This document shows positions 13,900 to 29,678 of a DNA stretch of 31,710 nt, piece by piece. This stretch comes from a virus. Its lineage: Duplodnaviria; Caudoviricetes. The notes beneath the pieces were generated by a model. That model was not told the DNA's origin, did not search any database, and saw only the letters and a list, made by a program, of their open reading frames with translations. Position numbers and translations under genes: made by a program. Where the stretch lies: positions 1 through 31,710 of IMG/VR virus record IMGVR_UViG_3300024284_000017; one strand, 5' to 3'. The stretch's first letter is position 1, and every line of letters starts with the position of its first letter.

Positions 13900-13928
13900 A
13901 GAAGTGTTGATTTCCAGCCGTTTGTCAA
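13900..13928 (-). promoter_or_regulatory. Promoter-like motif TTGACA-N16-CACTTCT (copy 1)
   Basis: TTGACA aacggctggaaatcaa CACTTCT, ending 6 nt before ATG 13893; same motif and spacing at 21370-21398 and 29650-29678. Confidence 0.75.
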
Positions 13929-15244
13929 TAGAGTTTGAAGACGGCGATTCCGCCGACCTCAATGGGAACCGTGGCATGGCTCCACCAAATGTCGATGCTG
14001 TCCAGGGCGCCGTTCGTCTCACTGTGCGTCGCCGACTGAGTGGATGAAGCGCCGTCATACCACCACGAATTGTAGGTTGCCACGTCCGTGCTCGTGACCG
14101 CGGCCAAAAGGGCGCCCCAGTCAATTCCCGCTTCCGGCCCCGCGCCGGTCCCAGAACTTTTCGGCCCCTGGACAAAAAAGCTGTAGGTGTTGGCGGTCGT
14201 CCCCCAACGGTTGCGCGCAATGTCGCATACGTTAATGACCTGCGCAGCAGACCCCGCCGCCGCATACCCCTTCATGGACGACACGCCGCCCATGTCCGTC
14301 CAAGTCGTGAGATTTTTCGTCGAGCCGCCAGCGAAGGAGGCCGCAAAAGTCGCCATGTCGTTTCCGGCGCTGTAGGTATACTGGTTCGTATTCCCTGGAC
14401 GCGTGGTCGCGCCGGCGAAATTCGCGCAGCCCGTGCTGCCTGCGCCGCTCACGATTCCCGAGCAGACGCCAAATGCAAAATCGCCCGTGATGGTCGCCGC
14501 GCCGCTGATGCGGAGCAAAAGACCAATGCGGATGCGTTTCCACTTTTCTCCCCACGCCATCTTGCGTTTGAATTCGCCTGGGCCAACGAGCGAGAGTCGC
14601 TTATCGGACCGACCGTCGAACGCGGTGACCGCAACGATGGTCGCGCCGGACGCCGAGCCCGAGCCGCTCCACCCCGAGCCGCTGGTGAAGTTGGAAATTG
14701 CGCCCGTAGCGTAGTCATCAAAATTATCGAGAGCGAAAGAGTCACTGGTCTGAGACGCGCCCGCGACGCCCGCTGAGCCCGTCGGCCCTGTCGGCCCCGT
14801 GGGACCTGTCGGCCCCGTGGCCCCGCTCGCGCCCGTCGGACCCGTGGGACCCGTCGCGCCGCTCGCGCCCGTGGGACCCGTCGGACCTGTCGGACCTGTC
14901 GGACCTGTCGGACCCGTGACACCATTGGCACCCGCGGACCCCGTGGGTCCCGTCGGCCCCGTTGGCCCGGTCGGACCATTCGCGCCCGTCGGACCCACTG
15001 GCCCGGTCGGACCTGTCGGACCCGTCGGCCCCGTAACACCGTTCGTCCCGTTCGTTCCCGCGGCCCCGGTCGGCCCCGTGGGACCGGTCGGACCTGTCGG
15101 ACCCGTGACTCGGTTCAGGTCATTGACATGAAGCCGATAAAGCTGAATCACGCCGCCCGGATTGAGTTTTCCAATCAGGATATGCCCGTCATCCGCCGTA
15201 GTCAGCGGCGCTGTCTCGTAAAACTCTTCGAGGGCGTAGTTCAT
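13925..15244 (-). CDS. Collagen-like fibre protein with C-terminal beta-sandwich (possibly lectin-like) domain
   Basis: 39 consecutive G-X-Y triplets, then a ~270-aa domain paralogous to that of 15245-16363. Confidence 0.85.
14753..15103 (-). repeat. Collagen G-X-Y coding repeat (39 triplets, 23 of them GPT)
   Basis: Degenerate 9-bp tandem repeats (e.g. gtcggacct on the + strand), counted from the translation. Confidence 0.95.
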
Positions 15245-16363
15245 TTAGTAAACCTTGTGGACGGCCATGCCGCAAATTTCCAGCGGGTGCGCGCCATCCC
15301 ATCGGATATTGAGCGTATCGAAAGCGCCGGTGCTTTCGTCGTCGTTGAAGCTATTGGTGACCGTTCCTGCGCCGGTCACAGTGACAATCGTGTCGTCCTG
15401 CGCCAGCGAACTGTTGTTCGCGCTGTCCAGGATGGTGTGGAAAAGCGACCGCTTGCTCAAAGAGAATTCCGCCTGGGTGGCGTTCGTCGAGCGCATGCCC
15501 CACGAGTATGCCACCGACGTCGCGGAGGTAGCAAACACCGGGCGCGCAACTTCCAAAAAGAACATCGTGCGCAGAGCCTCCGTGGATGCGAATCGGCGAC
15601 CATCCGACCCGGCTCCTCCCCCTTGGTCAACTGGGGCGCCGGCGCCACGCTTCGTAACGAAACGCGTGCCGACACTCTGCGCGAAAAAGTCCACCGTCGT
15701 TCCGTTCGTGAATACCCACGAGTTCACGTTGACCGGGTCAAAATAAAGACCGATGGCGTTTGCAGTCGTCCCGCCGAAAGGGTTCGTGGTGCCGGAGCAC
15801 AATCCAATGAACCCGTTCGCGGTGAAAGTTGATGCGCCGTTGCAGCGAAGAAGCAGCGCAATGCGCAGCCGGTGCCAATCGCTGCCGATGTAAAGCTTGC
15901 GCGCAAATTCGCCCGAGGACAAACTCAAACGCCGTTCCGTGCGACCGTTCGCGATGTTCCGCTGCACGATGGTTCCGCCCGAGACAACGCCGGCGGTGTC
16001 CCAGCCGAATCCGCCGTTCGGCGCGACAATCGCGCCAGGGGCGTATTCCTCGAACAGGTCCATCGACAAACCATCGGGATGCACCCACTCGTCCGAACTA
16101 TCGGCACCCTGCGCGCCCGTCGGGCCAGTTGGACCCTGCCCGCCATTCGCGCCCGTCGGCCCCGTTGGGCCGGTCGCGCCGGGATTGCCATCCAAGCCCG
16201 GCAAACCTTGTGGGCCTGCCGGACCGGTGGCACCCAGTTGGTCAGGTGCAATTTTCTTCGTGATATACGGATGCTCAGAACCCGGCGGCTGCTCCTCGGC
16301 AATGAAAAGCCAACCCTTGGCGACTGCCTGCTCACCGTTTACATATTGGGAAACTTTGCTCAT
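15245..16363 (-). CDS. Collagen-like fibre protein, paralogue of 13925-15244
   Basis: 15 G-X-Y triplets (16100-16234), then DLFEEY...RRLSL..GEFARK...W.R.RI.LLLR...G.CSG...AVHKVY. Confidence 0.85.
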
Positions 16364-16575: not shown

Positions 16576-17726
16576 TGCAGTCGGATATATGCGATGTTCG
16601 AACCGTCTTGGAAGATGGTCTGTGGCGTATCGCCACTGGCCGAGGTTACGTGGACGTCAATGATTTCGTTGTCGCTGGACGTTGTCACCAAAGCCCAGAT
16701 GTGAACGTAGTTCGAATGGTTCGAGCCGCCGGTGTTCCAGATGATGACGTCCGGGTGTTCGCCGCCGGGGACCGGAGTCGCAGTCGTTTGGTTGTTGAGA
16801 TAAAAATCCCACTCAAGGTTGTTTCCGCTTCCGACGTCGTTGAAACAGCGGAACCGCGCGATGACCCAATAGGTCCCCGCGACCGGGAGGTTGACTTCCG
16901 GGTCATCAATTCCGAAAGTGATTTTTTGGTCCGCGTTCGTGACCGTGAAGTCCGTCGCGCCCGTGATGACGACTTGCCCGTTGGCGTTCGTAGTCACCGC
17001 GCCCGTCGGCCCCGTGGGACCCGTGGCGCCAGTCGGCCCTGTGGGACCCTGGATGCCCTGGGCGCCGGTCGGCCCCTGGGTGCCCGGCGTTCCCGGCGGT
17101 CCGGTAATCGTGAGCCCCTGCGGTCCGCACGGAATGACGACCGTTCCAGGAACAGTCACCACGTTTGGGGAGGGGACGGCGGAAATTAGTTGCGCGAAGA
17201 CCGAGTTCGACACTCGACTCGTCACGACGTAATAACCGGAGCCGGGGATGAAAACCGTCTGGCCGACGGTCACAGTGGGCGAAGCCACAATGTTGAAGTT
17301 CACCGTGCCGCCAGAGGAAGGCTGCACGAACGCCGTCAGCAAAATTGTCCAGGGCGTCGGTCCGTTCTCGCCGGCTGCGCCGGTCGCGCCAGTGGGACCT
17401 TCAAGCCCGTTGATACCATCGCGAAACAGCCGAAGGAAATAACACGCGAGCCCCTCGCCGTCCGCACGCGGATTGCCGGGCAGGCCGATGTCGAGATTAC
17501 ATGGCAGAATCCATCGGACCTGTCCGTCAATTTCCGTCTTGGTCACTGAACCGAAGAACGCATCGACGAAATTTTGGAGCGCGCTCGGAAGCGTTTCGCA
17601 GTCCGTCGAGTTTGGCGGACACGAACGACACGGGTTGCACTGCGTCGAACCGCAATCAGCCGGGAAGGTCTGGTTGCAATCCCCGCAATCTCCGTTGCAC
17701 CCTTGGCTACCGCAATCGCACGACAT
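16572..17726 (-). CDS. Cys-rich collagen-like protein with BclA/C1q-like C-terminal domain
   Basis: 10 Cys in the first 43 aa, two G-X-Y segments, and a beta-rich C-terminal domain with VNLPVAGTYWVIA, reminiscent of BclA-CTD/C1q folds. Confidence 0.75.
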   Translation of the reverse strand: MSCDCGSQGCNGDCGDCNQTFPADCGSTQCNPCRSCPPNSTDCETLPSALQNFVDAFFGSVTKTEIDGQVRWILPCNLDIGLPGNPRADGEGLACYFLRLFRDGINGLEGPTGATGAAGENGPTPWTILLTAFVQPSSGGTVNFNIVASPTVTVGQTVFIPGSGYYVVTSRVSNSVFAQLISAVPSPNVVTVPGTVVIPCGPQGLTITGPPGTPGTQGPTGAQGIQGPTGPTGATGPTGPTGAVTTNANGQVVITGATDFTVTNADQKITFGIDDPEVNLPVAGTYWVIARFRCFNDVGSGNNLEWDFYLNNQTTATPVPGGEHPDVIIWNTGGSNHSNYVHIWALVTTSSDNEIIDVHVTSASGDTPQTIFQDGSNIAYIRLQ

Positions 17727-19612: not shown

Positions 19613-19646
19613 AAAAGAAAGGGTGTGAGCCCGAAGGCCCACACCC
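19613..19646 (-). terminator. Intrinsic terminator closing the capsid transcription unit
   Basis: GGGTGTGGGCC-TTCG-GGCTCACACCC (11-bp stem, one G-U pair, UUCG loop) followed by TTTCTTTT. Confidence 0.9.
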
Positions 19647-19660
19647 AATTCGAAAACCGC

Positions 19661-19861
19661 TCAGGTAATGGGCGTGTCAATGCCGAGGGCAGTGACCAGC
19701 GCATTATCCCAATCGGACCCGGCGCTCTTGTCCGTGATAGCGGACCCGCCGGCGATGAGAATTTCCTGCAACAGACCCGACACGGAGCGGCCTTCGAGCC
19801 CGGTGAGGCTGAGGTCGTGACCGAGTGCGAGGAGAGCAGCTTGAGCTTCAACGTAAGTCAT
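19661..19861 (-). CDS. Small protein co-transcribed with the major capsid gene (possible decoration protein)
   Basis: 66 aa; the only gene between the MCP and the terminator; A/C-rich unstructured upstream region. Confidence 0.65.
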   Translation of the reverse strand: MTYVEAQAALLALGHDLSLTGLEGRSVSGLLQEILIAGGSAITDKSAGSDWDNALVTALGIDTPIT

Positions 19862-19887
19862 ATTTTTTGGTGAGGTTGAGTGTTGAA

Positions 19888-19915
19888 CTGGCCGGCGGTT
19901 TTACCCGCCGGCCAG
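19888..19915 (-). other. Strong stem-loop downstream of the capsid gene (no U-tract)
   Basis: CTGGCCGGCGG-GTAAAA-CCGCCGGCCAG, perfect 11-bp stem. Confidence 0.8.
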
Positions 19916-19929
19916 ACCCTACAGACCCA
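19908..19929 (+). repeat. Inverted-repeat partner of 27104-27125
   Basis: ccggccagACCCTACAGACCCA (+) versus ccggtctaACCCTACAGACCCA (minus strand of 27104-27125): 14 nt perfect, 19/22 overall. Confidence 0.8.
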
Positions 19930-19931
19930 GC

Positions 19932-21212
19932 TTAGGAGTCGCAGACTCCCAAGGTGGCAAACGAATCGCTTCCAGAGAAGCTCGAACTGTCCGTCACGGT
20001 GCAGTCGGGCAGACCGAGGTCCGCTTGGCAGCGCCGATACAGGATGGGGACGACGTGCTGCGGGCGAATCGGCTGATACGCACGAGTAATCTGATACTTG
20101 TGCCAACCGAAGTCACCGAACTGATTGCAGTCGTTGTCCACGATGTAGTGCCACTCCAGCTCACCCATGTGAAGCTGAGGCGCGAACTTGAAGGTCCCTT
20201 CGCCGACATACTTCTCGGGCACGAGCCGGTTGAAGGTATTGTCGAACATCAAGAACCCGACTTCGTAGTCCGCAGCCAACCACGCGGGATTGACCTTGGC
20301 ATACGCCGTGTTCTTGGTGAGGTTCGGGACGTTCACGACGGGGTCAACCAGGATGAGGTTGCCGTCGCCGTCGAAGCCGGTCGCACGCAGCGGGCGCTGG
20401 TCAACACCAAACGCGATGCCGCGATACGCGGGGGCCTCTTCGAACTGGTAGGCAGAGACACTCTGCTCGCCCAGCTTGTATCCACCGGTCGTCAAACCGA
20501 TGAGGATTTCCTTCACGCCGATTTCGTTGCGGAAACTCTCGATGATGTCGGAGCTGCCGATGAAACGAGCGTGGGGCATCCCTTTGCCTTCGCTGTCGAA
20601 CATCGAAGCGAACAACGCTTCCTTGACGAAGCGCGTGACGTAGTGCAGAGCCTTGAAGCTCAGCGGACCCGTCGGCAACAGTGGGGCGAACTGGACACCG
20701 AGGTCCGTTTCAGTTCCACCGGTGAACAGAGAGTCGAAATCGTAGCCGGCGACGGCGTTGAACTTCGACGCGCTGCGCAGGTAAAGCTGGGCGCGGATGT
20801 CGGCGTTGACGTATTGCGTCACCAGCTTCCGCAGAGAATCCTCGGCAGAGAGATAGCTGGATTTGAAGGCAGCGTAGCCTTTCTTGACGCAGACGCGAGG
20901 ACCACGACCACGCTTGGTTTCCAAGCGAGCGGTGAAGTCGATTGCGTCGGTGAGGTCCTGGATGCCGTTGGTTCCACAGACTTCAGTGTCGCACTGAAAA
21001 GTGGGGAGAGCCAGCGAGTCGCCTGGGGCGGCTTGCATCTGGACGGGGAAGCGGATTTCATCCGACACGCCGGACGGGAACACCCCGCCGCCGATGACGT
21101 TAATGAAAACCGAGTTGGCCGCGAGAGTTTTCGCGACCGTCCCAACGAGCCGGGAAACGTCCTTTTGGGCGATTTCCGAGATTACGTCGGGTGCATTACA
21201 GTCAGCACTCAT
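19932..21212 (-). CDS. Major capsid protein (putative)
   Basis: 426 aa; downstream of portal and scaffold; has its own promoter-like motif, long leader, downstream hairpin and terminator, as expected for a highly expressed MCP. Confidence 0.78.
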   Translation of the reverse strand: MSADCNAPDVISEIAQKDVSRLVGTVAKTLAANSVFINVIGGGVFPSGVSDEIRFPVQMQAAPGDSLALPTFQCDTEVCGTNGIQDLTDAIDFTARLETKRGRGPRVCVKKGYAAFKSSYLSAEDSLRKLVTQYVNADIRAQLYLRSASKFNAVAGYDFDSLFTGGTETDLGVQFAPLLPTGPLSFKALHYVTRFVKEALFASMFDSEGKGMPHARFIGSSDIIESFRNEIGVKEILIGLTTGGYKLGEQSVSAYQFEEAPAYRGIAFGVDQRPLRATGFDGDGNLILVDPVVNVPNLTKNTAYAKVNPAWLAADYEVGFLMFDNTFNRLVPEKYVGEGTFKFAPQLHMGELEWHYIVDNDCNQFGDFGWHKYQITRAYQPIRPQHVVPILYRRCQADLGLPDCTVTDSSSFSGSDSFATLGVCDS

Positions 21213-21365
21213 TTTGAGTAACTTTCGGTTTTGTCCTGGGTTTGCCCCAGAACGGGTTTACGAACGATGCGACGCGTAGGGGCGTCACTGCCCTTCGCTC
21301 CAGAGCCACCGAAGCGCATTAGGCTCGTTCCAGACCGACCTAGTCCGGCTGACTGTTTAAGGTCA
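21213..21365 (-). promoter_or_regulatory. Structured ~150-nt 5' leader of the capsid gene
   Basis: Longest intergenic stretch in the window; four hairpins (21330-21348, 21296-21316, 21269-21288, 21233-21253) and a GAACGA/TCGTTC closing stem. Confidence 0.6.
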
Positions 21366-21369
21366 TTGA

Positions 21370-21398
21370 AGAAGTGTGGCGTTTTTGCGAAATGTCAA
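21370..21398 (-). promoter_or_regulatory. Promoter-like motif TTGACA-N16-CACTTCT (copy 2)
   Basis: TTGACA tttcgcaaaaacgcca CACTTCT upstream of the MCP leader; the fcl stop codon TGA lies inside TTGACA. Confidence 0.8.
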
Positions 21399-22333
21399 CG
21401 CAAAATCGACAACCGCTGAAGATATTGGGCGTAGGTCAGCTTAAGTCCTTCCGGGAAAGGCACTTTGGGTGACCACCCGAGCGACCGGATGACGGAGTTG
21501 TCCAGGAGCTTCCGGGGGACGCCCGTGGGCTTGCTCGAATCGAAGTGCAGCCAGCCCTTGAAGCCGACCACCTGGGCCACCTCCTCAGCGATGGCCTTGA
21601 TTGTCCACTCGTCGCTGCTGCCCGTGTTCACCACCGCGCGCCCGCTGTATTCGTTCATCAGCAGCACGCACGCGCGAGCGAGGTCATCCGCGTAGAGCAA
21701 CTCCCGCTCCGCGGTTCCGTCGCCCCACACATCAAATTCTCGGAGCCCAATTTTCTTCGCTTGGTGCATGCGCGTCAAAAGACCGGGGACGACGTGCGAA
21801 CGCACGCTGTCGAATCGGTCACCGCCGCCGTAGAGATTGCACGGCATGGCCGAGATGAAGTCGTGACCTTTCTCGTCCCGGAGGTATTGGCACAGCCGGA
21901 TGCCGGCCACCTTGGCGATTCCATACGCCTCGGTCGTGGGCTCGAACGGTCCGGTCAAAAGCGCCTCGGGCTTGATAGGCTGGGCCGAGTCCCGCGGATA
22001 GATGCACGAGCTGCCCAAGAACAACAGCTTCTTCGTGCCATACTCCGCGGCGTTGAGGATGATGTTGTTTTGGATGGCGAGGTTCTTCGTGATGAAGTCC
22101 ACCTTGTTCTGGTCGTTCGCCAGGATGCCCCCGACGTGCGCCGCGGCCAGAAAAACATACTCCGGTCGGTGGACGGAGAAAAACCACTTCACGAAGACCG
22201 GGTCCGTGAGGTCGCCCTCCTGCCGAGTAGCCGTGACGATGTTCTGGTAACCTTGCGCGCGAAGCTGGCGATAAAGTGCGTCACCAACAAGCCCACGATG
22301 CCCGGCCACATAGATTTTGGATTCCTTGTTCAT
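21395..22333 (-). CDS. fcl: GDP-L-fucose synthase (GDP-4-keto-6-deoxymannose epimerase/reductase)
   Basis: ATG 22333 (ATGA overlap): KIYVAGHRGLVG, FLAAAHVGGILAN, FLGSSCIYP, YGIAK (YxxxK), MPCNLYG, SHVVP, WGDGT, KPTGVPRKLLD are the Fcl/WcaG signatures. Confidence 0.95.
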   Translation of the reverse strand: MNKESKIYVAGHRGLVGDALYRQLRAQGYQNIVTATRQEGDLTDPVFVKWFFSVHRPEYVFLAAAHVGGILANDQNKVDFITKNLAIQNNIILNAAEYGTKKLLFLGSSCIYPRDSAQPIKPEALLTGPFEPTTEAYGIAKVAGIRLCQYLRDEKGHDFISAMPCNLYGGGDRFDSVRSHVVPGLLTRMHQAKKIGLREFDVWGDGTAERELLYADDLARACVLLMNEYSGRAVVNTGSSDEWTIKAIAEEVAQVVGFKGWLHFDSSKPTGVPRKLLDNSVIRSLGWSPKVPFPEGLKLTYAQYLQRLSILR

Positions 22334-23049
22334 TTGCTCTTTCGTTTGAGGAACTGTCCACGCGCGTATTCGAGCTGCCGACGAATCGACGCGTTCTTCA
22401 CCGAGTGAACGAAGATTTTTCCCTGCCGCCAAACTTGGTCGGTCATCACTTTCAAGCCGTAAGGGTCCGCCGTCCCGCAACTGAACCCGTCCTTGAAAGT
22501 CTTGTGCGGAATTCCGCCGGCCACCGCGACCGCCATCACGAACCAGTCGATGAACGGGGTCTGCGGGTCAATCTTCACCAGCGGCGCGGCCTTAATCATC
22601 CGTTCGACGATTTCGCGCGACCAAAAATACGGGGGCTGGAACGCGAGGCGCGGCCACTTGTATTCCGGCTTGCGCTTGTGCATCATGTCGGACACCTCGT
22701 TGCTCCACAGCACGTCTTCCTTGTAAAGATACTCGGGAAGCTCGGGGGCCAGACAAAAACTGTCGGAGTCGTTCGAGAGGAAATGCGTCGCGTTGAAGTC
22801 GAGCATAATCTCCCAGTGGCGGACCTGCCGCTTGAGGCTGTCCTCACCGGTGTATTGCCGCTTGCCGCCGAAGCGGCAGATGTGCGGACCGAACGATTCA
22901 ATGCGGGAGTCGTCCGGCGTCATCACCACGATGGGCGCCTTGTGATGCTCATACATCGGGCGAAGGTCGTTAATCTGGTGAGCGTCCCCGGCGTAGCCGT
23001 GAACAGTGACGACCAGCTTCTTCACGCTTTGTTGTATTTCGTCGGGCAT
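22330..23049 (-). CDS. Putative GT-A fold glycosyltransferase
   Basis: Hydrophobic strand followed by DSD (HFLSNDSDSF), C-terminal FVHSVK, GGAGG upstream of the ATG; sits inside the sugar-modification cluster. Confidence 0.6.
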   Translation of the reverse strand: MPDEIQQSVKKLVVTVHGYAGDAHQINDLRPMYEHHKAPIVVMTPDDSRIESFGPHICRFGGKRQYTGEDSLKRQVRHWEIMLDFNATHFLSNDSDSFCLAPELPEYLYKEDVLWSNEVSDMMHKRKPEYKWPRLAFQPPYFWSREIVERMIKAAPLVKIDPQTPFIDWFVMAVAVAGGIPHKTFKDGFSCGTADPYGLKVMTDQVWRQGKIFVHSVKNASIRRQLEYARGQFLKRKSK

Positions 23050-23573
23050 GTCTGGGTCCTCCGTTCCAGGGGAAACTCAAAAAGCGCCTCCTGGAGTCTT
23101 GCCACGTCCACGTTCTGCGTCCGTGTCACAAATTGAATCACGCTCGTGACGGTCGCCACCGGGCGCGCCATCAGGTCCTCATACCACACCACCAGCCGCC
23201 ACGGCACCGGGCTATAAATCCACTTCTTCACGAAGTTCGCGTAGAATTCGATGCGATGCTCGCACGTATCCACAACGCGACCGGCCACGCGCTTGTCCAG
23301 GTTCTCCCAGGATTCAATCGCTTCCAGCGGATTTCGAATCTGCACGATATAGTTTCGGTCCGGCAGAATCGGCGTGTCCAGGTTGAAGTCGTGGTTCTTC
23401 TGCCAGTTGGTCGAAGAACCCTCCCCGATGCGCGCGCCGTCCCGATAAATTTCACCGTAGTGAAAGTTTTCCGCGAAGTAAAAACGCAGCACCTCAGTGA
23501 GCGCGTGGTGCCCACACCGCGGGAAGCTGATGCACTCGGTCGGGATGAAGGTGCGCGGAAATTCTTTGCTCAT
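23022..23573 (-). CDS. Sulfotransferase-like protein
   Basis: SFPRCGHH (5'-PSB-like loop), IRNPLEAIES (3'-PB RxPxxxxxS motif), WYEDLMARP; ATG 23573 in ATGA overlap. Confidence 0.75.
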   Translation of the reverse strand: MSKEFPRTFIPTECISFPRCGHHALTEVLRFYFAENFHYGEIYRDGARIGEGSSTNWQKNHDFNLDTPILPDRNYIVQIRNPLEAIESWENLDKRVAGRVVDTCEHRIEFYANFVKKWIYSPVPWRLVVWYEDLMARPVATVTSVIQFVTRTQNVDVARLQEALFEFPLERRTQTCPTKYNKA

Positions 23574-24316
23574 AGCCACCGCTTTCGGACGAGGTTGAAC
23601 ACGTCATCGGTCTTGCAGCCGTGAAGATACACTGCGCCCTCGGCCAGGAGCGATTCGTATTGCTCCTGCGACACCTGCGGGCAGCGCCACCAGGATTTCA
23701 TCTGCTTGCAATCAGCCCAGCCCATCCGCTTGAACTGCGGGGCCAGACACCAGTCCCAGCCGGCGTGCGGATTGCAGCCGCCGATTTTTCGGGTGAACCA
23801 ATGGAGAAAAGGCATGTCGCCCGAGACCAGACAGTTTCCGTTGATGTGCTGGTTCCCCGCGTCTTTCACACCGTTCGGTAGCAGCGGGCCGAACACGCGC
23901 ACCGGCTTGACCTTGTTGGCCAAGTCCCAGGCGTTCGACAGCTCCTCTATCCAGCCCGGACGAAGCGGCGCGCTGTCCGCTTCAAGAAGCGCCACAGCCT
24001 TGTAAGGAGGGATTCGTCGAACCGCAGCGTGACTGTATACGTAGTCGAGTGTGCCGAAAGCGAGGTCGTTGCATCCGGCGGGCCATCCTTTGCCGCGGCG
24101 TCCCCGGCAAATGTTCGTATGCACAGCAAACTTGCGAGAAACGTATTCGATAGTGGAAACATCGTGCGTGCAATCGAATCGCGCGGAAAAAAGCACATCG
24201 GCGTTCTCCGACATGCGCGGCTCCAAGTCCGCCACTAGCCGAGCCAACTTACTCGATTGTGCTCGGTCCTGTTCCCAATAAACAAAGGCAATGAGAAGTT
24301 TGTTAGCGGGATTCAA
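23570..24316 (-). CDS. Putative GT-A fold glycosyltransferase
   Basis: Likely TTG start 24316 preceded by GGAGG; ALLEADSAPL (ExD), HINGN, WDW, C-terminal YLHGCK similar to FVHSVK of 22330-23049. Confidence 0.6.
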   Translation of the reverse strand: MNPANKLLIAFVYWEQDRAQSSKLARLVADLEPRMSENADVLFSARFDCTHDVSTIEYVSRKFAVHTNICRGRRGKGWPAGCNDLAFGTLDYVYSHAAVRRIPPYKAVALLEADSAPLRPGWIEELSNAWDLANKVKPVRVFGPLLPNGVKDAGNQHINGNCLVSGDMPFLHWFTRKIGGCNPHAGWDWCLAPQFKRMGWADCKQMKSWWRCPQVSQEQYESLLAEGAVYLHGCKTDDVFNLVRKRWL

Positions 24317-24713
24317 GGTATTCCTCCGATGATTTTTTCCACACGGGATTTTCCATCTCGTGAAGAACACTGTTGCACCGACGACACAAAAGACCTCGGA
24401 CCTTGCCGGTCGCGTGATTGTGGTCCACAACCAATTTCTTCGGGGCGCCCCCACAAATTTCGCAACGGTTACCGACCCTGGCACACCACTGTTCGTAAGC
24501 TTCCAAGGTTAGCCCGTAAGACCGCAGCAAGTGATTTTTCTTGTCGCGCAGTTTGTAAGCATCCAGATGTCTTTCGCGCTGCTCCTTGCTTTTCCGAGAC
24601 TCATACCCAGGGTCACGAAGCACTCGTTTCGCCCTGGACTTCCTGGACGCAGCACGCGCTCGTTCCTTTCGGATGAAGTCCGAAGTGTTACCGGTTCTTG
24701 TCTGGCTCTCCAT
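24303..24713 (-). CDS. Endonuclease VII-family HNH (free-standing homing endonuclease-like)
   Basis: YGLT...CEICG...LVVDHNHATGKVRGLLCRRCN; overlaps both neighbours; start 24713 or 24737. Confidence 0.9.
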   Translation of the reverse strand: MESQTRTGNTSDFIRKERARAASRKSRAKRVLRDPGYESRKSKEQRERHLDAYKLRDKKNHLLRSYGLTLEAYEQWCARVGNRCEICGGAPKKLVVDHNHATGKVRGLLCRRCNSVLHEMENPVWKKSSEEYLESR

Positions 24714-25488
24714 AACAGTAGCTACCGATGTGGCCACAAAGCAGGCCCATGTCTACGTGCGGCTGGTGACCCGCCTGGGTGGCGCGAATGCAGAATTGAA
24801 CATCCTCGCCCATTCCCAAGCTCGAATGCCGCTTAGACTTCGCCGACGCCGCGCGAAGATATTTCATCGCCTCCTCGGCGTTCGGCCAGTCTTTGACAAC
24901 TTCAAAAGCGTGCCGGAGGTCGTGCTCGCTTGACGTAAACCACTGACCGCCCTTGCCGTCCTTCCCGCGCGCGAGGTGCGGAAACTCCTTCTCGATATCG
25001 AGCAAAACCGAACGGTGAATCAGCATGCACCCGGTCCCGACCCATCGCGTTGGTTTGATGAGGTCGTATGGTCCGCGCTTGGCGTAGCGCAACTCGTCCG
25101 GGTCCGAACCTTCGCCATACATCGCCTTGCCGTGACGCCAGCGACCGAAGTAAAGGCCCCCCACCAAAGTTTTGCCGTGAGATAGAAGCCGGTCGATAGT
25201 GTTGCGTCCGGCAAAACGCTCAGCAAGACTGAAGCGAGTAAACGAATTAAAAAGTTTTGCATTCCCCCAAGGCACGACCATGTCGTCGTCGATTGTCAGC
25301 ATCCATTCCATCTTGGTCTGCAAAAATCCCGCGGCGAGCTTGTTCCGGGAATGCACTACGAATGCATCCCCGAAGTCCAGCATCTCCGCGGTCCGGCCCT
25401 TGCCGTTGTGAATCAGCCCCATGACGCTGAAAGCCATCCGTGGCTCCATCGTCTTATACGAGGGCAGACAAATGCAGACCTGACTCAT
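24688..25488 (-). CDS. Glycosyltransferase, GT2-like
   Basis: SRNKL, WMLTIDDDM (DxD), VGTGCMLIHRSVL, GEDVQFC, CGHIG: the common phage GT2 pattern; TAATG-coupled to the scaffold gene. Confidence 0.88.
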   Translation of the reverse strand: MSQVCICLPSYKTMEPRMAFSVMGLIHNGKGRTAEMLDFGDAFVVHSRNKLAAGFLQTKMEWMLTIDDDMVVPWGNAKLFNSFTRFSLAERFAGRNTIDRLLSHGKTLVGGLYFGRWRHGKAMYGEGSDPDELRYAKRGPYDLIKPTRWVGTGCMLIHRSVLLDIEKEFPHLARGKDGKGGQWFTSSEHDLRHAFEVVKDWPNAEEAMKYLRAASAKSKRHSSLGMGEDVQFCIRATQAGHQPHVDMGLLCGHIGSYCYGEPDKNR

Positions 25489-26786
25489 TAGCCGCGGCGG
25501 GCTTCAACCTCCGCACGGGCTCGGTCGAGCGCGTCCGCAGGTTTCTCGTTCACGTTCGCCGCGCCGCCAGGGGTGATGGTCGTGGTCGCCGTGGTGTCGC
25601 GAAGGCGGTTCGTCGAACCCTTCTTCACTTTTTCCAACAGCGCGTTGGCCGCATCCAGTTCGGCTTTCAACTTCGTGACTTCGGACTTGTGGGCCGAGGT
25701 CGCCGCGGAGTAGTCCGCGCGCAGCTTCATCAACTGGGCCAGACCGACCGCCAGGAAGGCGCGCATCTCGGGACTGTCGTCGTCGATGGCTTCCTTGATG
25801 GCTTCCTTGGTTTCCGTCAAAAGCTTGTTGTGCTCCACGATGGACGCCTTCTCAGCGGCAGTGGACTTGTCCGTCGGCTTCTGCTCCACGAACCAGTCCA
25901 GCTTCGGCAACATGGTGTCGAGAGTGGTCGCGGCTTTTTCGCGAAATTCTTTCTTCGCGGTCTCGCCCGCCTGGGCGCGCTGCGTCAAAAACTCTTCCGA
26001 GTTTTTCTTCGCGGTGGCGATGGCGGTTGACTTCTTCTCCTTGAGGTCTTCGAGCTGCGTCAGCTTCACCTCGATGAACCGGCGAGCCGCGGAAGGCAGC
26101 TTCTCCAGAATCGGGTCCCACTGCACCTTGAAGACGCCGCCCATCGACTTGATTTTTTCGACGGTGTGTTCGGGAACACCGACAGCCAAAAGCTTGCCAT
26201 AGATGGACTCGGCCTGGGTCGTCGATTCCTCGTCGAACTTTTTGAATTCCGGGTCGGCCTCGACGTCAAGCTTGCGTCGGAATTCGCGAAGCTCCTTCAG
26301 CTCGGCCTCGACCTTCGGGTCGAGTCGGCCAGCTTTCTCCGTCAGCTCCTTGATTTGTTTCTCGAACGCGTCCCGCTCCGTCTGGAGCGCGGTCACCTTC
26401 TCGTTCGCGAGCCGCTTGATGTTCTCAAACGCCTCGGCGGATTTGCCCTTCAACTGCGGGGCCTGCACGTCCGAAAAAGCGTCGGTCGCAGCGCCGGACA
26501 CCGGGGGCGTCGCGTCACCGGACACAACAGGAGGCGTGGCGTCACCGGAAGGTCCGGTCGCACCGGTCGCTGCCGGCTGAGTCTTGGGAAGGAATTTTCC
26601 GGTCTTCGGGTCTCGCGGTTCCGCCGCGGGGGCCGCGGGACCGGTCGGACCTTTGTTTCCCTCTATCGGGCCGGCTTCTTCCTGCTGTTTCAGCAGCGCG
26701 TCGAGCGCGCTCGACGTCTCGTCAGAAATGGACGGCAGGTTGCCGCTCAAATCGGCGCCGGTAGAGTTGGGGTTCGGGTTGGGCAT
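25488..26786 (-). CDS. Putative capsid scaffolding protein
   Basis: 432 aa; disordered Pro/Ala/Thr N-terminus with the RDPKTGKF motif, long coiled coils, linker and short C-terminal helix; lies between portal and MCP. Confidence 0.72.
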   Translation of the reverse strand: MPNPNPNSTGADLSGNLPSISDETSSALDALLKQQEEAGPIEGNKGPTGPAAPAAEPRDPKTGKFLPKTQPAATGATGPSGDATPPVVSGDATPPVSGAATDAFSDVQAPQLKGKSAEAFENIKRLANEKVTALQTERDAFEKQIKELTEKAGRLDPKVEAELKELREFRRKLDVEADPEFKKFDEESTTQAESIYGKLLAVGVPEHTVEKIKSMGGVFKVQWDPILEKLPSAARRFIEVKLTQLEDLKEKKSTAIATAKKNSEEFLTQRAQAGETAKKEFREKAATTLDTMLPKLDWFVEQKPTDKSTAAEKASIVEHNKLLTETKEAIKEAIDDDSPEMRAFLAVGLAQLMKLRADYSAATSAHKSEVTKLKAELDAANALLEKVKKGSTNRLRDTTATTTITPGGAANVNEKPADALDRARAEVEARRG

Positions 26787-26789
26787 AGA

Positions 26790-27104
26790 TTAGCTTTGGG
26801 TTTTTTCTTCGGCGGGCGGTTCGTCGTCCTGCCACTTGCTGTTGTCGTCCAAGTCCGGGTAATTGGATTCCGGTTCGGCCTGGGGTGGTCGGGTTGTCTG
26901 CAAATCCAACAACGCCTGGACGGCGCGCTGGTATCCTTCGCGCAAGCAAGACGACACTAAGGTCGAGTGCGGGTTCGCGTCAGAAAATGCCGGCATGGAG
27001 TAGAGCACATGCTGCAACGCGATGGCTCCTGTGGTGCTCGCGAGGAAGTCCTTGAGAATCTTCGCGTCATCGCTGTCCCATTTGTTGGGCTCGTTTGAAA
27101 TCAT
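26790..27104 (-). CDS. Small conserved-type protein between portal and scaffold (Bbp19-like position)
   Basis: 104 aa; FLASTTG..AL...LREGYQRAVQALL pattern; synteny. Confidence 0.6.
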   Translation of the reverse strand: MISNEPNKWDSDDAKILKDFLASTTGAIALQHVLYSMPAFSDANPHSTLVSSCLREGYQRAVQALLDLQTTRPPQAEPESNYPDLDDNSKWQDDEPPAEEKTQS

Positions 27105-27125
27105 GGGTCTGTAGGGTTAGACCGG
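27104..27125 (-). repeat. Inverted-repeat partner of 19908-19929, covering the translation initiation region of 26790-27104
   Basis: ccggtctaACCCTACAGACCC-ATG; the final A of the match is the A of the start codon. Confidence 0.8.
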
Positions 27126-27128
27126 GTG

Positions 27129-29288
27129 CTAAAAGGTCTGTTCGGGGGCAGCGGTGGGTTCGGGTGGCAACTCTTGCGGAGTTACACCCGGAATAGGGTT
27201 GCCAGCTTCGTCGGTCGGACCAGGAGGCGCCCCTGCTTCCAGTTCGGCCTGACGTTGCTGAGCCATTGCGGTTTGCTGGGCCATTTCCGTGAGCTTCGGC
27301 ATCTGCGCCGCGAGCTTTCCGAGAATGTCCGAGAAAGGTTTCATCGCCGCCTTGTCCACTCCAGTCTGGAGTCCAATCTGCTCGTGCGCTTTGGCGTGTT
27401 TCAAAATCGCGGTGAGCGTGGTGATGGCGTGGGGGTCCTGAACCGCTTGCTGAGCGGTTGCCTCCAGGGCGGGCATCAAAATCTGCAAGTGGATGAGGTG
27501 ATTGTCGCGCGGCGACACCGGAACCTCGGTCCCCTGCGGGATGATGAGCGCGGACAGCTCCACCATCTGCGCGCGAGACTGCTCGGCCTGTTCCGTCGGG
27601 TCGTTGTCGGGCAACAGCACCGAGTTTGCAAATTCTTCGTCCACGAGCGCGATGAGTTTGCGCCGTTCCATTTCCTTGGCGTTGTAAAGCGAATTGCCGC
27701 GAGCTTCCTGAGCGATGATGACGACCTGCTGGCGTTTGATTTCGGTGTAGTCCTTTACAGTCTCCGTCGAAGGCATTTCCGAAATCTGTTTCAGCTCCTC
27801 TTTGGACATCACCATGAGAAGACGCTTCTGCATCGCCTTCGCATCGTCCTCGGAGGTGTTCGGGTCGCACGCGCGCCGCTGAATCGTGGTCATCGCCGCA
27901 GAAAACTGCGTGAGGAACCGCGAGATGACGTTGTCCTTGGTCTCTTCCTCGCGCGATGCGAGAAAATCCACCGCGGCCTTGGTCACGCGCTCGCCTTCCA
28001 GCGCGCGAGGCGTCGTGGCGCCCGCCATCTGGTCGAGGAGCCCCGTCAAAAACTGGTCAAGCTGAACGAACGGTTCAACCGCGGCGTCCAGCTTGCGTTC
28101 GAGCACGCTATATCCTTGCGCGATGAGAATCGCGTTGCCGACAACCGACATTCGGAAGCGTTTGAGGACTTTTTCGTCCGCCTGGATGATAACCTTGCCC
28201 GAAAGGTTCAACCGGTCCACAACTTCGTTGCGCGAGCGGTCGATGATGCCGGCGATGGAGTAAAGTTCGCGCCCGATTCCCTTCGAACCATGAACTGTCC
28301 CGTTGCCCTGCTGAAAAGTGAAGAACGCGGCGGCGTCCGCCATCGTTTTGTATTGGTCTTCGCTCGTGAACAGCTCGGTGAACGTCTTTTCCTCGAAAAT
28401 GTAGTGCGAAACCTGTCCGTCAATCTCGGTGGCGAGCAAATGCCACACGACGACCACGCGCGCGCCGCTCTCGTGCGACAATCCGAGGTTCGATTCGCGA
28501 ATCAGGTCCTCGTAAACGCGTTCCCAGGCGGAATACTGCGAGCGTCGGTCCTGCGGCATCGCCGAGTTGATAATCTGGACCGTGTTTTCGAGATTCCAGC
28601 CGCGAGTTTTCGCTGCGTCCTTGTCACTGATGAGTTCAAACAGCTCATGGAGCAGAAAAACTTCCTTGAGGCACACGACCTGCGCTTTTCCGGGGATGGG
28701 TTTCGTCCCGGTGGGCACCGCGGCGAAGTCCTGACGGAAAAATTTCGGGAACCAACTGAATTCGTCGAGCCAAGCCAGGACGGCCCAGCCAAAAAGTGCA
28801 TTTTCCTGAGCGAGGTCGCCCAAAAAATCTCGCCAGCCGGCGCGGTTGCGACACAGCGACGTGATTTCGCGACGGAAAGCCTCGGTTTTGACCGCGGCTC
28901 CTTCAATGTCGTCGGGAAGTTTCGAGTTGGTGAGAAATTTGACGCCCTCGATGGCCTGCACGAACCGCGGCGCGACCTTTTCGACGAGCATCGCGAGCAC
29001 CTTGGTCGAAAAATTTGCTTTCCAAGACAGGCCCTCATTTTCCAGCGCGTCCGTTCGATGCGGTTTTTCGCTGTTGACCTTGGCCTGGATGCGCGCGTTC
29101 TTGATGTTGCGCTCGCGTGAAGCGGCAAGCAACACCATCACAATGTTTCGCGCCTGGACCGCGTCGCGAATGGCCCGGTTTCCAGGCTTCAGATTTTTCG
29201 ACAGGTCGGGCGGCGACACCGCGCCCTTAAAATCGCCCTGGGGCGCCCCCGCGTATGAAGGTTCAGGCAGAGAAGGAGCTAGTGGCAT
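27129..29288 (-). CDS. Putative portal protein
   Basis: 719 aa, helix-rich, Gln/Ala/Pro-rich C-terminal extension with DNHLIHL; first large gene after the terminase. Confidence 0.75.
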   Translation of the reverse strand: MPLAPSLPEPSYAGAPQGDFKGAVSPPDLSKNLKPGNRAIRDAVQARNIVMVLLAASRERNIKNARIQAKVNSEKPHRTDALENEGLSWKANFSTKVLAMLVEKVAPRFVQAIEGVKFLTNSKLPDDIEGAAVKTEAFRREITSLCRNRAGWRDFLGDLAQENALFGWAVLAWLDEFSWFPKFFRQDFAAVPTGTKPIPGKAQVVCLKEVFLLHELFELISDKDAAKTRGWNLENTVQIINSAMPQDRRSQYSAWERVYEDLIRESNLGLSHESGARVVVVWHLLATEIDGQVSHYIFEEKTFTELFTSEDQYKTMADAAAFFTFQQGNGTVHGSKGIGRELYSIAGIIDRSRNEVVDRLNLSGKVIIQADEKVLKRFRMSVVGNAILIAQGYSVLERKLDAAVEPFVQLDQFLTGLLDQMAGATTPRALEGERVTKAAVDFLASREEETKDNVISRFLTQFSAAMTTIQRRACDPNTSEDDAKAMQKRLLMVMSKEELKQISEMPSTETVKDYTEIKRQQVVIIAQEARGNSLYNAKEMERRKLIALVDEEFANSVLLPDNDPTEQAEQSRAQMVELSALIIPQGTEVPVSPRDNHLIHLQILMPALEATAQQAVQDPHAITTLTAILKHAKAHEQIGLQTGVDKAAMKPFSDILGKLAAQMPKLTEMAQQTAMAQQRQAELEAGAPPGPTDEAGNPIPGVTPQELPPEPTAAPEQTF

Positions 29289-29641
29289 GAAAATTTTGCT
29301 TTGTAGGCGTGCGCCTTAGCCAACCATTCCGAATCATCCACCGCGGACAGTCGAATGTTGCAGCGGCAACACACGATGCCACGAACTTTTCCTGTGCAAT
29401 GGTCGTGGTCAACGTAAACTCGTTTCAACGGTTGTTCGCACACCGCGCACTTTCCGTCCTGGGCGATGACCATCGCATCCATCTCCAATTTGCTTATACC
29501 ATACCGTCGTTTCAGGTCCGGGCGGCGGGCAGCATAATGACGGAGCTGTTTTGCCTTGTCCTTGTCAGGATTCTCAGCCCGCCATTTTCGATGGTAGGCT
29601 CGCATGTATTCTCGCTTCGCGACTGAATCGGCGTAAGGCAT
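29279..29641 (-). CDS. Endonuclease VII-family HNH (free-standing homing endonuclease-like)
   Basis: RRYGIS...QDGKCAVC...VDHDHCTGKVRGIVCCRCN; overlaps the portal start by 10 nt. Confidence 0.9.
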   Translation of the reverse strand: MPYADSVAKREYMRAYHRKWRAENPDKDKAKQLRHYAARRPDLKRRYGISKLEMDAMVIAQDGKCAVCEQPLKRVYVDHDHCTGKVRGIVCCRCNIRLSAVDDSEWLAKAHAYKAKFSCH

Positions 29642-29649
29642 TCTTACCT

Positions 29650-29678
29650 AGAAGTGTCGGATTTCAGACGTTTGTCAA
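29650..29678 (-). promoter_or_regulatory. Promoter-like motif TTGACA-N16-CACTTCT (copy 3)
   Basis: TTGACA aacgtctgaaatccga CACTTCT, ending 8 nt before ATG 29641. Confidence 0.75.

Follow-up and report, generated by a model that had tools for sequence, protein, structure and literature searches.

Complementary sites at the ends of two head genes

The window analysed here is a single phage contig of 31,710 nucleotides (nt), IMGVR_UViG_3300024284_000017, whose structural genes, including every gene concerned here, all lie on the minus strand. We studied an exact 14-base-pair (bp) inverted repeat of this window, with arms at 19916-19929 and 27104-27117 and 7,174 nt between them. One arm (site A) follows the stop of a putative capsid gene, and the other (site B) covers the start of a small gene placed between the putative portal and scaffold genes. 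A first reading of the letters, hereafter the sequence-only reading, had proposed that the capsid 3' region is a perfect 14-nt complement of the small-gene start, and this complement is indeed present. The features involved are the following.

19888..19915, minus strand: G+C-rich 11-bp hairpin directly 3' of site A, without a U-tract in the window
19916..19929, minus strand: site A, the antisense arm, in the 3' untranslated region (UTR) of the putative capsid gene; it starts 2 nt after the capsid stop and abuts the hairpin
19932..21212, minus strand: putative major capsid gene, 426 amino acids (aa), with 1,150 homologues and weak structural matches
25488..26786, minus strand: putative scaffold gene of 432 aa; the Atlas gives PF09306 as a lead (0.90, on 13% of that cluster)
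26790..27104, minus strand: small gene, 104 aa, between portal and scaffold, with a Bbp19-like lead only
27104..27117, minus strand: site B, the target, at -13 to +1 of the small gene and 12-25 nt after the portal stop
27106..27123, minus strand: small local hairpin of 5 bp (predicted fold), with the C-rich seed of site B in its loop
27129..29288, minus strand: putative portal gene, 719 aa; the label follows from its size and its place alone

None of the head proteins (426, 432, 104, and 719 aa) had a match in Pfam, PHROGs, NCBIfam, or PDB sequences. The capsid label is weakly suggested by Foldseek: the structure model of the 426-aa protein (predicted local distance difference test score, pLDDT, 55.6) had phage capsids as its best rows, all weak (best E 5.4e-3), and a comparison with a viral structure library gave nothing clear. 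A single-sequence fold tried for the same label (pLDDT 30.5) was discarded. The 104-aa protein, whose gene stops 3 nt before the scaffold gene, had an Atlas lead to PF25181 at 0.85; its family profile matched Bbp19 of Bordetella phage BPP-1 with an E of 0.005 among 6 proteins, and hhalign gave no match for this lead.

The length of the 14-mer alone is no evidence, because it lies at chance level: 150 Markov-3 windows gave 4.6 exact non-palindromic inverted repeats of at least 14 bp per simulated window, and the window carries a second one in coding DNA (10560/24634). What speaks against chance within the window is the position of the arms: intergenic DNA amounts to 367 of the 31,710 nt (1.2%), and the expectation for both arms being intergenic, calculated post hoc, is about 3e-4. 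The decisive support for the complementarity is the covariation among relatives described below, not the length of the match.

Inside the window, sites A and B have a predicted binding energy of -19.4 kcal/mol, which makes site B the best of 453 sense-strand bins, with two antisense bins scoring better. Among the 39 called starts, only 27104 stands out as a target of site A, and no match to site A was found at the scaffold start of the window. The only further copy of the 14-mer with up to three mismatches has three of them and lies at 545, and Rfam had no match in the window. The sequence-only reading had extended the pairing by six pairs, one of them G-U, past a 2x2 loop (19908-19913 with 27120-27125). 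This extension can be drawn, but co-folding keeps the 11-bp hairpin, and four relatives (L011, L002, L003, and L009) do not retain it. Site A with its hairpin has the seed-plus-hairpin layout that a small RNA released from a 3' UTR would have, and the hairpin at 19888..19915 is likely an RNA 3'-end boundary. Beyond this hairpin, within 19621-19862 (minus strand), lies a 66-codon gene, which is followed by a terminator-like hairpin with a U-tract (19621-19646).

Covariation among relatives and the starts involved

Relatives were collected in eight scans (loci L001-L314), three of which supplied the best 80 of 128, 176, and 213 matches, and L132 was excluded as a probable copy of the window. Both gene ends were present in 159 of the 314 sequences, giving 78 distinct pairs, which fall into 47 clusters when portals are grouped at 80% identity. 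Between the portal and capsid stops lie 3.1-9.3 kilobases (kb).

The complementarity is real, conserved, co-varying, and long-range. Indeed, in a swapped-partner test on 46 clusters, without the window's clade (one member per cluster, three random draws, 200,000 permutations), capsid 3' ends scored 7.7-7.9 with their own partner and 6.5-6.6 with swapped ones (z 6.7-7.5), and 0 of the 200,000 permutations reached the own-partner score. Dinucleotide shuffles were beaten at p <= 0.05 by 11-12 of the 46 clusters, with a Fisher p of about 1e-8 when the window's clade is left out. The automatic excision of hairpins removed real arms in some loci (L063, L066), and therefore the swapped-partner test could only be weakened by it. 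The excess is strong in clusters 20-46 (z about 7). With sliding windows, the signal was limited to -45 to +55 of the portal stop and to +0 to 45 of the capsid stop; one unexplained window, 400 nt after the capsid stop, reached z 3.3. Among the controls, direct repeats gave z 0.0 and 40 random windows ranged from -2.3 to 2.8.

Perfect runs of at least 8 pairs at the junction between portal stop and small gene were found in 16 of the 47 clusters, against 2.3 expected from swapped partners, and runs of at least 10 pairs in 4 clusters, against 0.3. In 13 of the 16 clusters with a placed start, the run falls within -21 to +16 of the small-gene AUG, and site B sits 7-30 nt after the portal stop in most paired clusters. 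Two other measures were set aside: the rank of site B among gene junctions (first in 20/51), which C-rich composition had inflated, and duplex folding without constraints on windows of 60 x 80 nt, which was too permissive.

The retention of the complementarity in relatives, which the sequence-only reading had named as a check, is seen among both close and distant ones. In the close clade, no gap separates site A from the hairpin, and the core of the arm is kept in 13 of 14 distinct capsid 3' ends, while the adjoining hairpin changes freely; among members at 95% capsid identity, both arms are one base shorter, at matching positions. The local hairpin at site B (4-5 bp, C-rich seed in the loop) is predicted in 9/9 distinct sequences of this clade, at -4.4 to -6.3 kcal/mol; RNAalifold gave no consensus for it because the arms were aligned out of register. 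Among nearer lineages, two-sided changes occur in three core columns over 11 distinct cores, a count that includes one column forced to pair by the anchoring, comprises few independent events, and leaves aside nine loci without an anchor and three more without a partner. Distant phages (L016, L041, L046, L066, L074, L195, and L036) keep the pairing in an entirely different sequence, which often forms two short helices with a bulge between them. A reading of the internal loops as kink-turns was rejected, since no opposed G-A pairs were seen by eye. Of 53 distinct loci, 51 have a strong hairpin downstream of the capsid stop, with a U-tract in most distant relatives.

Several relatives depart from this arrangement. 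In L023, L028, L035, L063, and L301, the portal stop is directly followed by an unrelated open reading frame (ORF) that has been inserted at the small-gene start; in L023, L063, and L301 this ORF overlaps the small-gene start, and the complement stays at the first start after the portal. Site A appears to be lost, with a short stretch between stop and hairpin, in L280, L275, and cluster 11 (L075, L079, L245, L247, L252, and L260); of these, L280 and L275 still have a sequence resembling site B within the first small-gene codons. In L295, an inserted hairpin splits site A and both sides pair with site B (8 and 6 pairs), in a form resembling a three-way junction. In BPP-1, the one genome compared that has the Bbp19 gene in the same position, no run longer than 6 pairs was found between the capsid 3' end and the starts of bbp21-bbp17.

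We compared the starts of 26 gene families with at least 8 members as targets of the capsid 3' end. Only two were enriched, namely those of the small gene (t 4.3; 14/45 in the top 5%) and of the scaffold gene (t 2.7; 5/47 in the top 5%), and all others had t <= 1.9. The scaffold start (z 3.9-4.4) had emerged as a second target from a side peak 300-370 nt after the portal stop, and its perfect runs of at least 8 pairs number 5/47 clusters, against 1.0 expected. The pairings at the scaffold start comprise 15 perfect pairs at -16 to -2 in L273, 11 in L148, 11 in L073, 9 in L046, and 8 each in L003, L006, and L286; in L273 and L148 the scaffold start is a better target than the small-gene junction. 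Portal, capsid, glycosyltransferase, and tail-gene starts were tried as targets and rejected as not enriched, and for the start of the capsid gene itself t was 0.7 and z about 0. Thus, of the run that capsid messenger RNA (mRNA) had been proposed to block, namely small gene, scaffold, and glycosyltransferases, the first is supported as a target, the second is supported as one in some relatives, and the glycosyltransferases are not.

Transcription context, mechanism, and rival readings

The motif TTGACA-17 nt-CACTTCT occurs three times on the minus strand of the window, at 29678, 21398, and 13928. From its -35-like box and its position, we infer that it is a promoter. Two of its copies concern the genes discussed here.

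21370..21398, minus strand: promoter-like motif upstream of the capsid gene (TTGACA, 17 nt, CACTTCT-type box), with about 155 nt between it and the capsid start
29650..29678, minus strand: promoter-like motif before the run of HNH, portal, small, and scaffold genes; in relatives, 6 of 47 cluster representatives have it no more than 100 nt from the portal start

The copy before the capsid gene has the top score in the window, although it was itself in the training set, and among the 78 loci it is represented by 49 distinct sites, about 110-230 nt before the capsid start. The motif never occurs in the last 1.1 kb of the portal gene, and none lies just upstream of site B. The separate motif before the capsid gene would therefore imply a long portal-to-capsid mRNA with both sites and a short capsid mRNA with site A only. 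Since a separate capsid mRNA is likely, pairing in trans is plausible, and so is the abundant trans-acting capsid mRNA of the sequence-only reading. Many genes are coupled within 0-5 nt from stop to start, and no Shine-Dalgarno (SD) motif is visible before the 23 listed starts.

Two further observations concern these motifs. The stretch between the capsid motif and the capsid start (21213-21398, minus strand) is a strongly folded leader of about 155 nt (-57 kcal/mol, a value without a shuffle control) and a candidate structured 5' UTR; in 26 relatives the same leader measures 116-185 nt, at -35 to -69 kcal/mol, and often opens with a shared GA(A/C)CT motif. The motifs at 29650-29678 and 13900-13928 (minus strand) lie only 8 and 6 nt before an ATG (29641 and 13893), as in leaderless mRNAs. 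Such starts, together with the SD-less genes, may be of use in narrowing down the host.

It has long been asked how tailed phages control the relative amounts of portal, scaffold, and capsid and the time at which each is made, and apart from promoters and protein autoregulation few answers have been given. The findings above are most likely explained by RNA-RNA control linking the capsid mRNA to the small head gene and the scaffold. More specifically, we favour, with a probability of about 0.55, a reading in which the tail of the capsid mRNA pairs with the small-gene start, and in some relatives with the scaffold start, and blocks initiation or re-initiation there. A short capsid mRNA from the promoter at 21398 would build up late and act in trans on the long portal-to-capsid mRNA; pairing in cis across 3-9 kb could also occur. 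The G-rich arm of site A would first meet the C-rich loop of the site-B hairpin, and the arms would then zip into a helix of 11-14 bp (about -19 kcal/mol) between the portal stop and the AUG. Because the genes are SD-less and mostly coupled from stop to start, this helix would keep ribosomes from re-initiating after the portal as well as from initiating afresh, so that abundant capsid mRNA would lower the output of the small protein and the scaffold. Both the RNA pairing and the accumulation of the capsid mRNA are steps that we infer. If this reading is true, the head operon would contain an RNA-only feedback from the capsid mRNA to two upstream assembly genes, over 3-9 kb or between mRNAs, and the family offers natural compensatory variants and natural losses.

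Several points weigh against this reading. There is little signal in the lineage nearest the root and in cluster 11, clusters 0-16 reach only z 2.2-2.9, and 27 of the 47 clusters have no 8-pair run at either target. Some runs lie beyond the ribosome footprint (-49, -34, and +26). A whole-locus energy scan ranks site B first in 4/45 loci and in the top five in 11/45, and in a first co-folding test the own partner was best in 2/16. At helix ends, G-U is not enriched over A-C (16 vs 24; expected share 0.42), and for this reason wobble does not fix the pairing strand; the swapped-partner z is slightly higher for the mRNA strand (7.3 vs 6.4). In the close clade, read-through RNA beyond the hairpin may partly mask site A, with an opening cost of 3.8-8.0 vs 0.4-3.8 kcal/mol in an uncontrolled comparison. 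The gene labels (capsid, portal, scaffold, and small gene) are putative, with weak matches. Finally, the sign of the effect, repression or stabilisation, is not readable from sequence.

This last point leaves room for a different outcome of the same pairing: the helix could shield or define the 5' end of an mRNA for small gene and scaffold that is cut out of the portal transcript, in which case capsid mRNA would raise scaffold output, or it could, stacked on the hairpin, be a nuclease site. The same covariation fits this alternative, as do the persistence of site B at the portal junction despite the inserted ORF (L023, L063, and L301), the gapless contact of site A with the hairpin in the close clade, and a chaperone-substrate precedent (PMC8722363; PMC5737220). 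We consider it unlikely, however: it would require a further processed 5' end to account for the scaffold-start target, most clusters have the AUG inside or next to the helix, and no promoter-like site is found just upstream of site B. The helix might instead tether the small-gene start beside the capsid stop, with ribosomes finishing the capsid unzipping the AUG end and re-initiating, as a closed loop or a hand-over between mRNAs. In the close clade the AUG-bearing helix end is 2-3 nt from the capsid stop, which is the spacing of this phage's coupled genes, but the geometry is not kept: in other clusters, the beginning of site A is found anywhere from +1 to +43 relative to the stop, and site B occupies positions from -49 to +33 relative to the AUG. 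This makes the tether highly improbable. Its boldest form is likewise very unlikely: the capsid mRNA would grip the small-gene or scaffold start beside its own stop, and each finishing ribosome would free, or pass to, a helper start 7 kb away or on another mRNA. If true, it would be a long-range translational coupling metering head assembly, without a described counterpart in phages.

The sequence-only reading had also raised the possibility that the two copies act as DNA, either as a protein-binding motif in two orientations or as inversion sites. The exact 14-bp identity in the window and the lack of a G-U bias for the mRNA strand would fit, but the direct-orientation control gave z 0.0, the copies differ among relatives by bulges of 2-8 nt and internal mismatches, and third copies stand at the scaffold start. 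Portal and capsid lie on one strand in 164/164 loci, and portal and scaffold in 196/196 (the loci overlap and are partly non-independent); the three joints found in four contig sets include none that changes strand, with the limit that contigs drop rare variants. Inversion, which would turn the scaffold and capsid genes away from the portal promoter, is thus disfavoured, and to action as DNA in general we give even less credence than to the tether. Composition or shared history, with G-rich arms before terminators meeting C-rich starts by chance and the window's 14-mer being lucky, has in its favour the C-rich start regions and proline-rich portal end, the number of such 14-mers expected per window, and the many clusters without pairing. 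It is largely refuted and stands as the least credible of these explanations: the swapped-partner and dinucleotide-shuffle tests correct for composition and stay significant, 24 of the 26 gene families show nothing, and core columns change on both sides.

Elsewhere in the window, a sugar-enzyme island lies between the scaffold and capsid genes (21395-25488, minus strand), with an epimerase/GDP-fucose-synthase-like gene (strong Pfam match), a weak sulfotransferase match, and probable glycosyltransferases. Two endonuclease VII-type HNH genes are found at 24303-24713 and 29279-29641 (minus strand), one of them between the portal promoter-like site and the portal. Three putative fibre genes carry collagen-like Gly-Pro-Thr repeats (14730-15130, 16100-16230, and 16990-17100). 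A search for the host found none, with no match among 50,697 GenBank phages, and a lead from one short contig in a genome bin, at 61%, was not trusted. Leaving a possible source aside, all four other runs with at least half of the sampled window words were soil metagenomes, and among the matches listed no RNA run shared window words.

Comparison with known systems

In the literature covered, which includes few subscription journals and PMC10690425 without its supplements (a possible hairpin listing), no pairing of a capsid 3' UTR with portal or scaffold starts, and no case from a phage head operon, was found. Related arrangements are described in bacteria. In the icaR mRNA of Staphylococcus aureus, a 3'-UTR motif pairs with the mRNA's own SD region and blocks initiation, the paired RNA being a substrate for RNase III (PMC3868564). 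The present system likewise has a co-varying 3'-UTR element complementary to a translation start region, with an initiation block predicted; unlike in icaR, its targets, one or two in each genome, are other genes that lie 3-9 kb upstream and are SD-less, and the sequence that pairs changes from phage to phage. Because the target is neither its own cistron nor an SD sequence, it is not a member of the icaR type.

In Listeria monocytogenes, the hly 3' UTR pairs with the 5' end of prsA2, protects it from RNase J1, and raises its output (PMC8722363). This is a trans mRNA-mRNA pairing from the 3' UTR of a substrate gene to the mRNA of its chaperone, and capsid and scaffold stand in a like relation. 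The prsA2 target is the extreme 5' end, whereas the starts targeted here lie inside a polycistronic mRNA, and while output rises there, it could rise or fall here. The hbs mRNA of Bacillus subtilis has a 14-bp interaction between its 5' and 3' UTRs that modulates RNase Y cleavage (PMC5737220); it shares with our case a long-range helix of about 14 bp from a 3' UTR to an upstream leader, but it acts within one short mRNA, and here the partner is an internal start codon kilobases away.

As regards position, a ribosome termination structure just after a stop codon limits re-initiation (PMC7518266), and site B also lies just after the portal stop. The published structure is a fixed, local one, whereas the one proposed here would be supplied by a distant or separate RNA and would be switchable. 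As regards distance, in Bacillus a ribosome-binding site can be closed off by a short complement located hundreds of bases from it, kilobases being outside the range of that study (preprint PMC12697547); for this reason distance is not prohibitive in principle.

Among phages, translational autoregulation of the P22 scaffolding protein is protein-mediated. As in P22, the supply of scaffold in the head operon would be under post-transcriptional control (10.1101/2022.12.13.520362); unlike in P22, the sequence evidence here points to RNA pairing from the capsid transcript.

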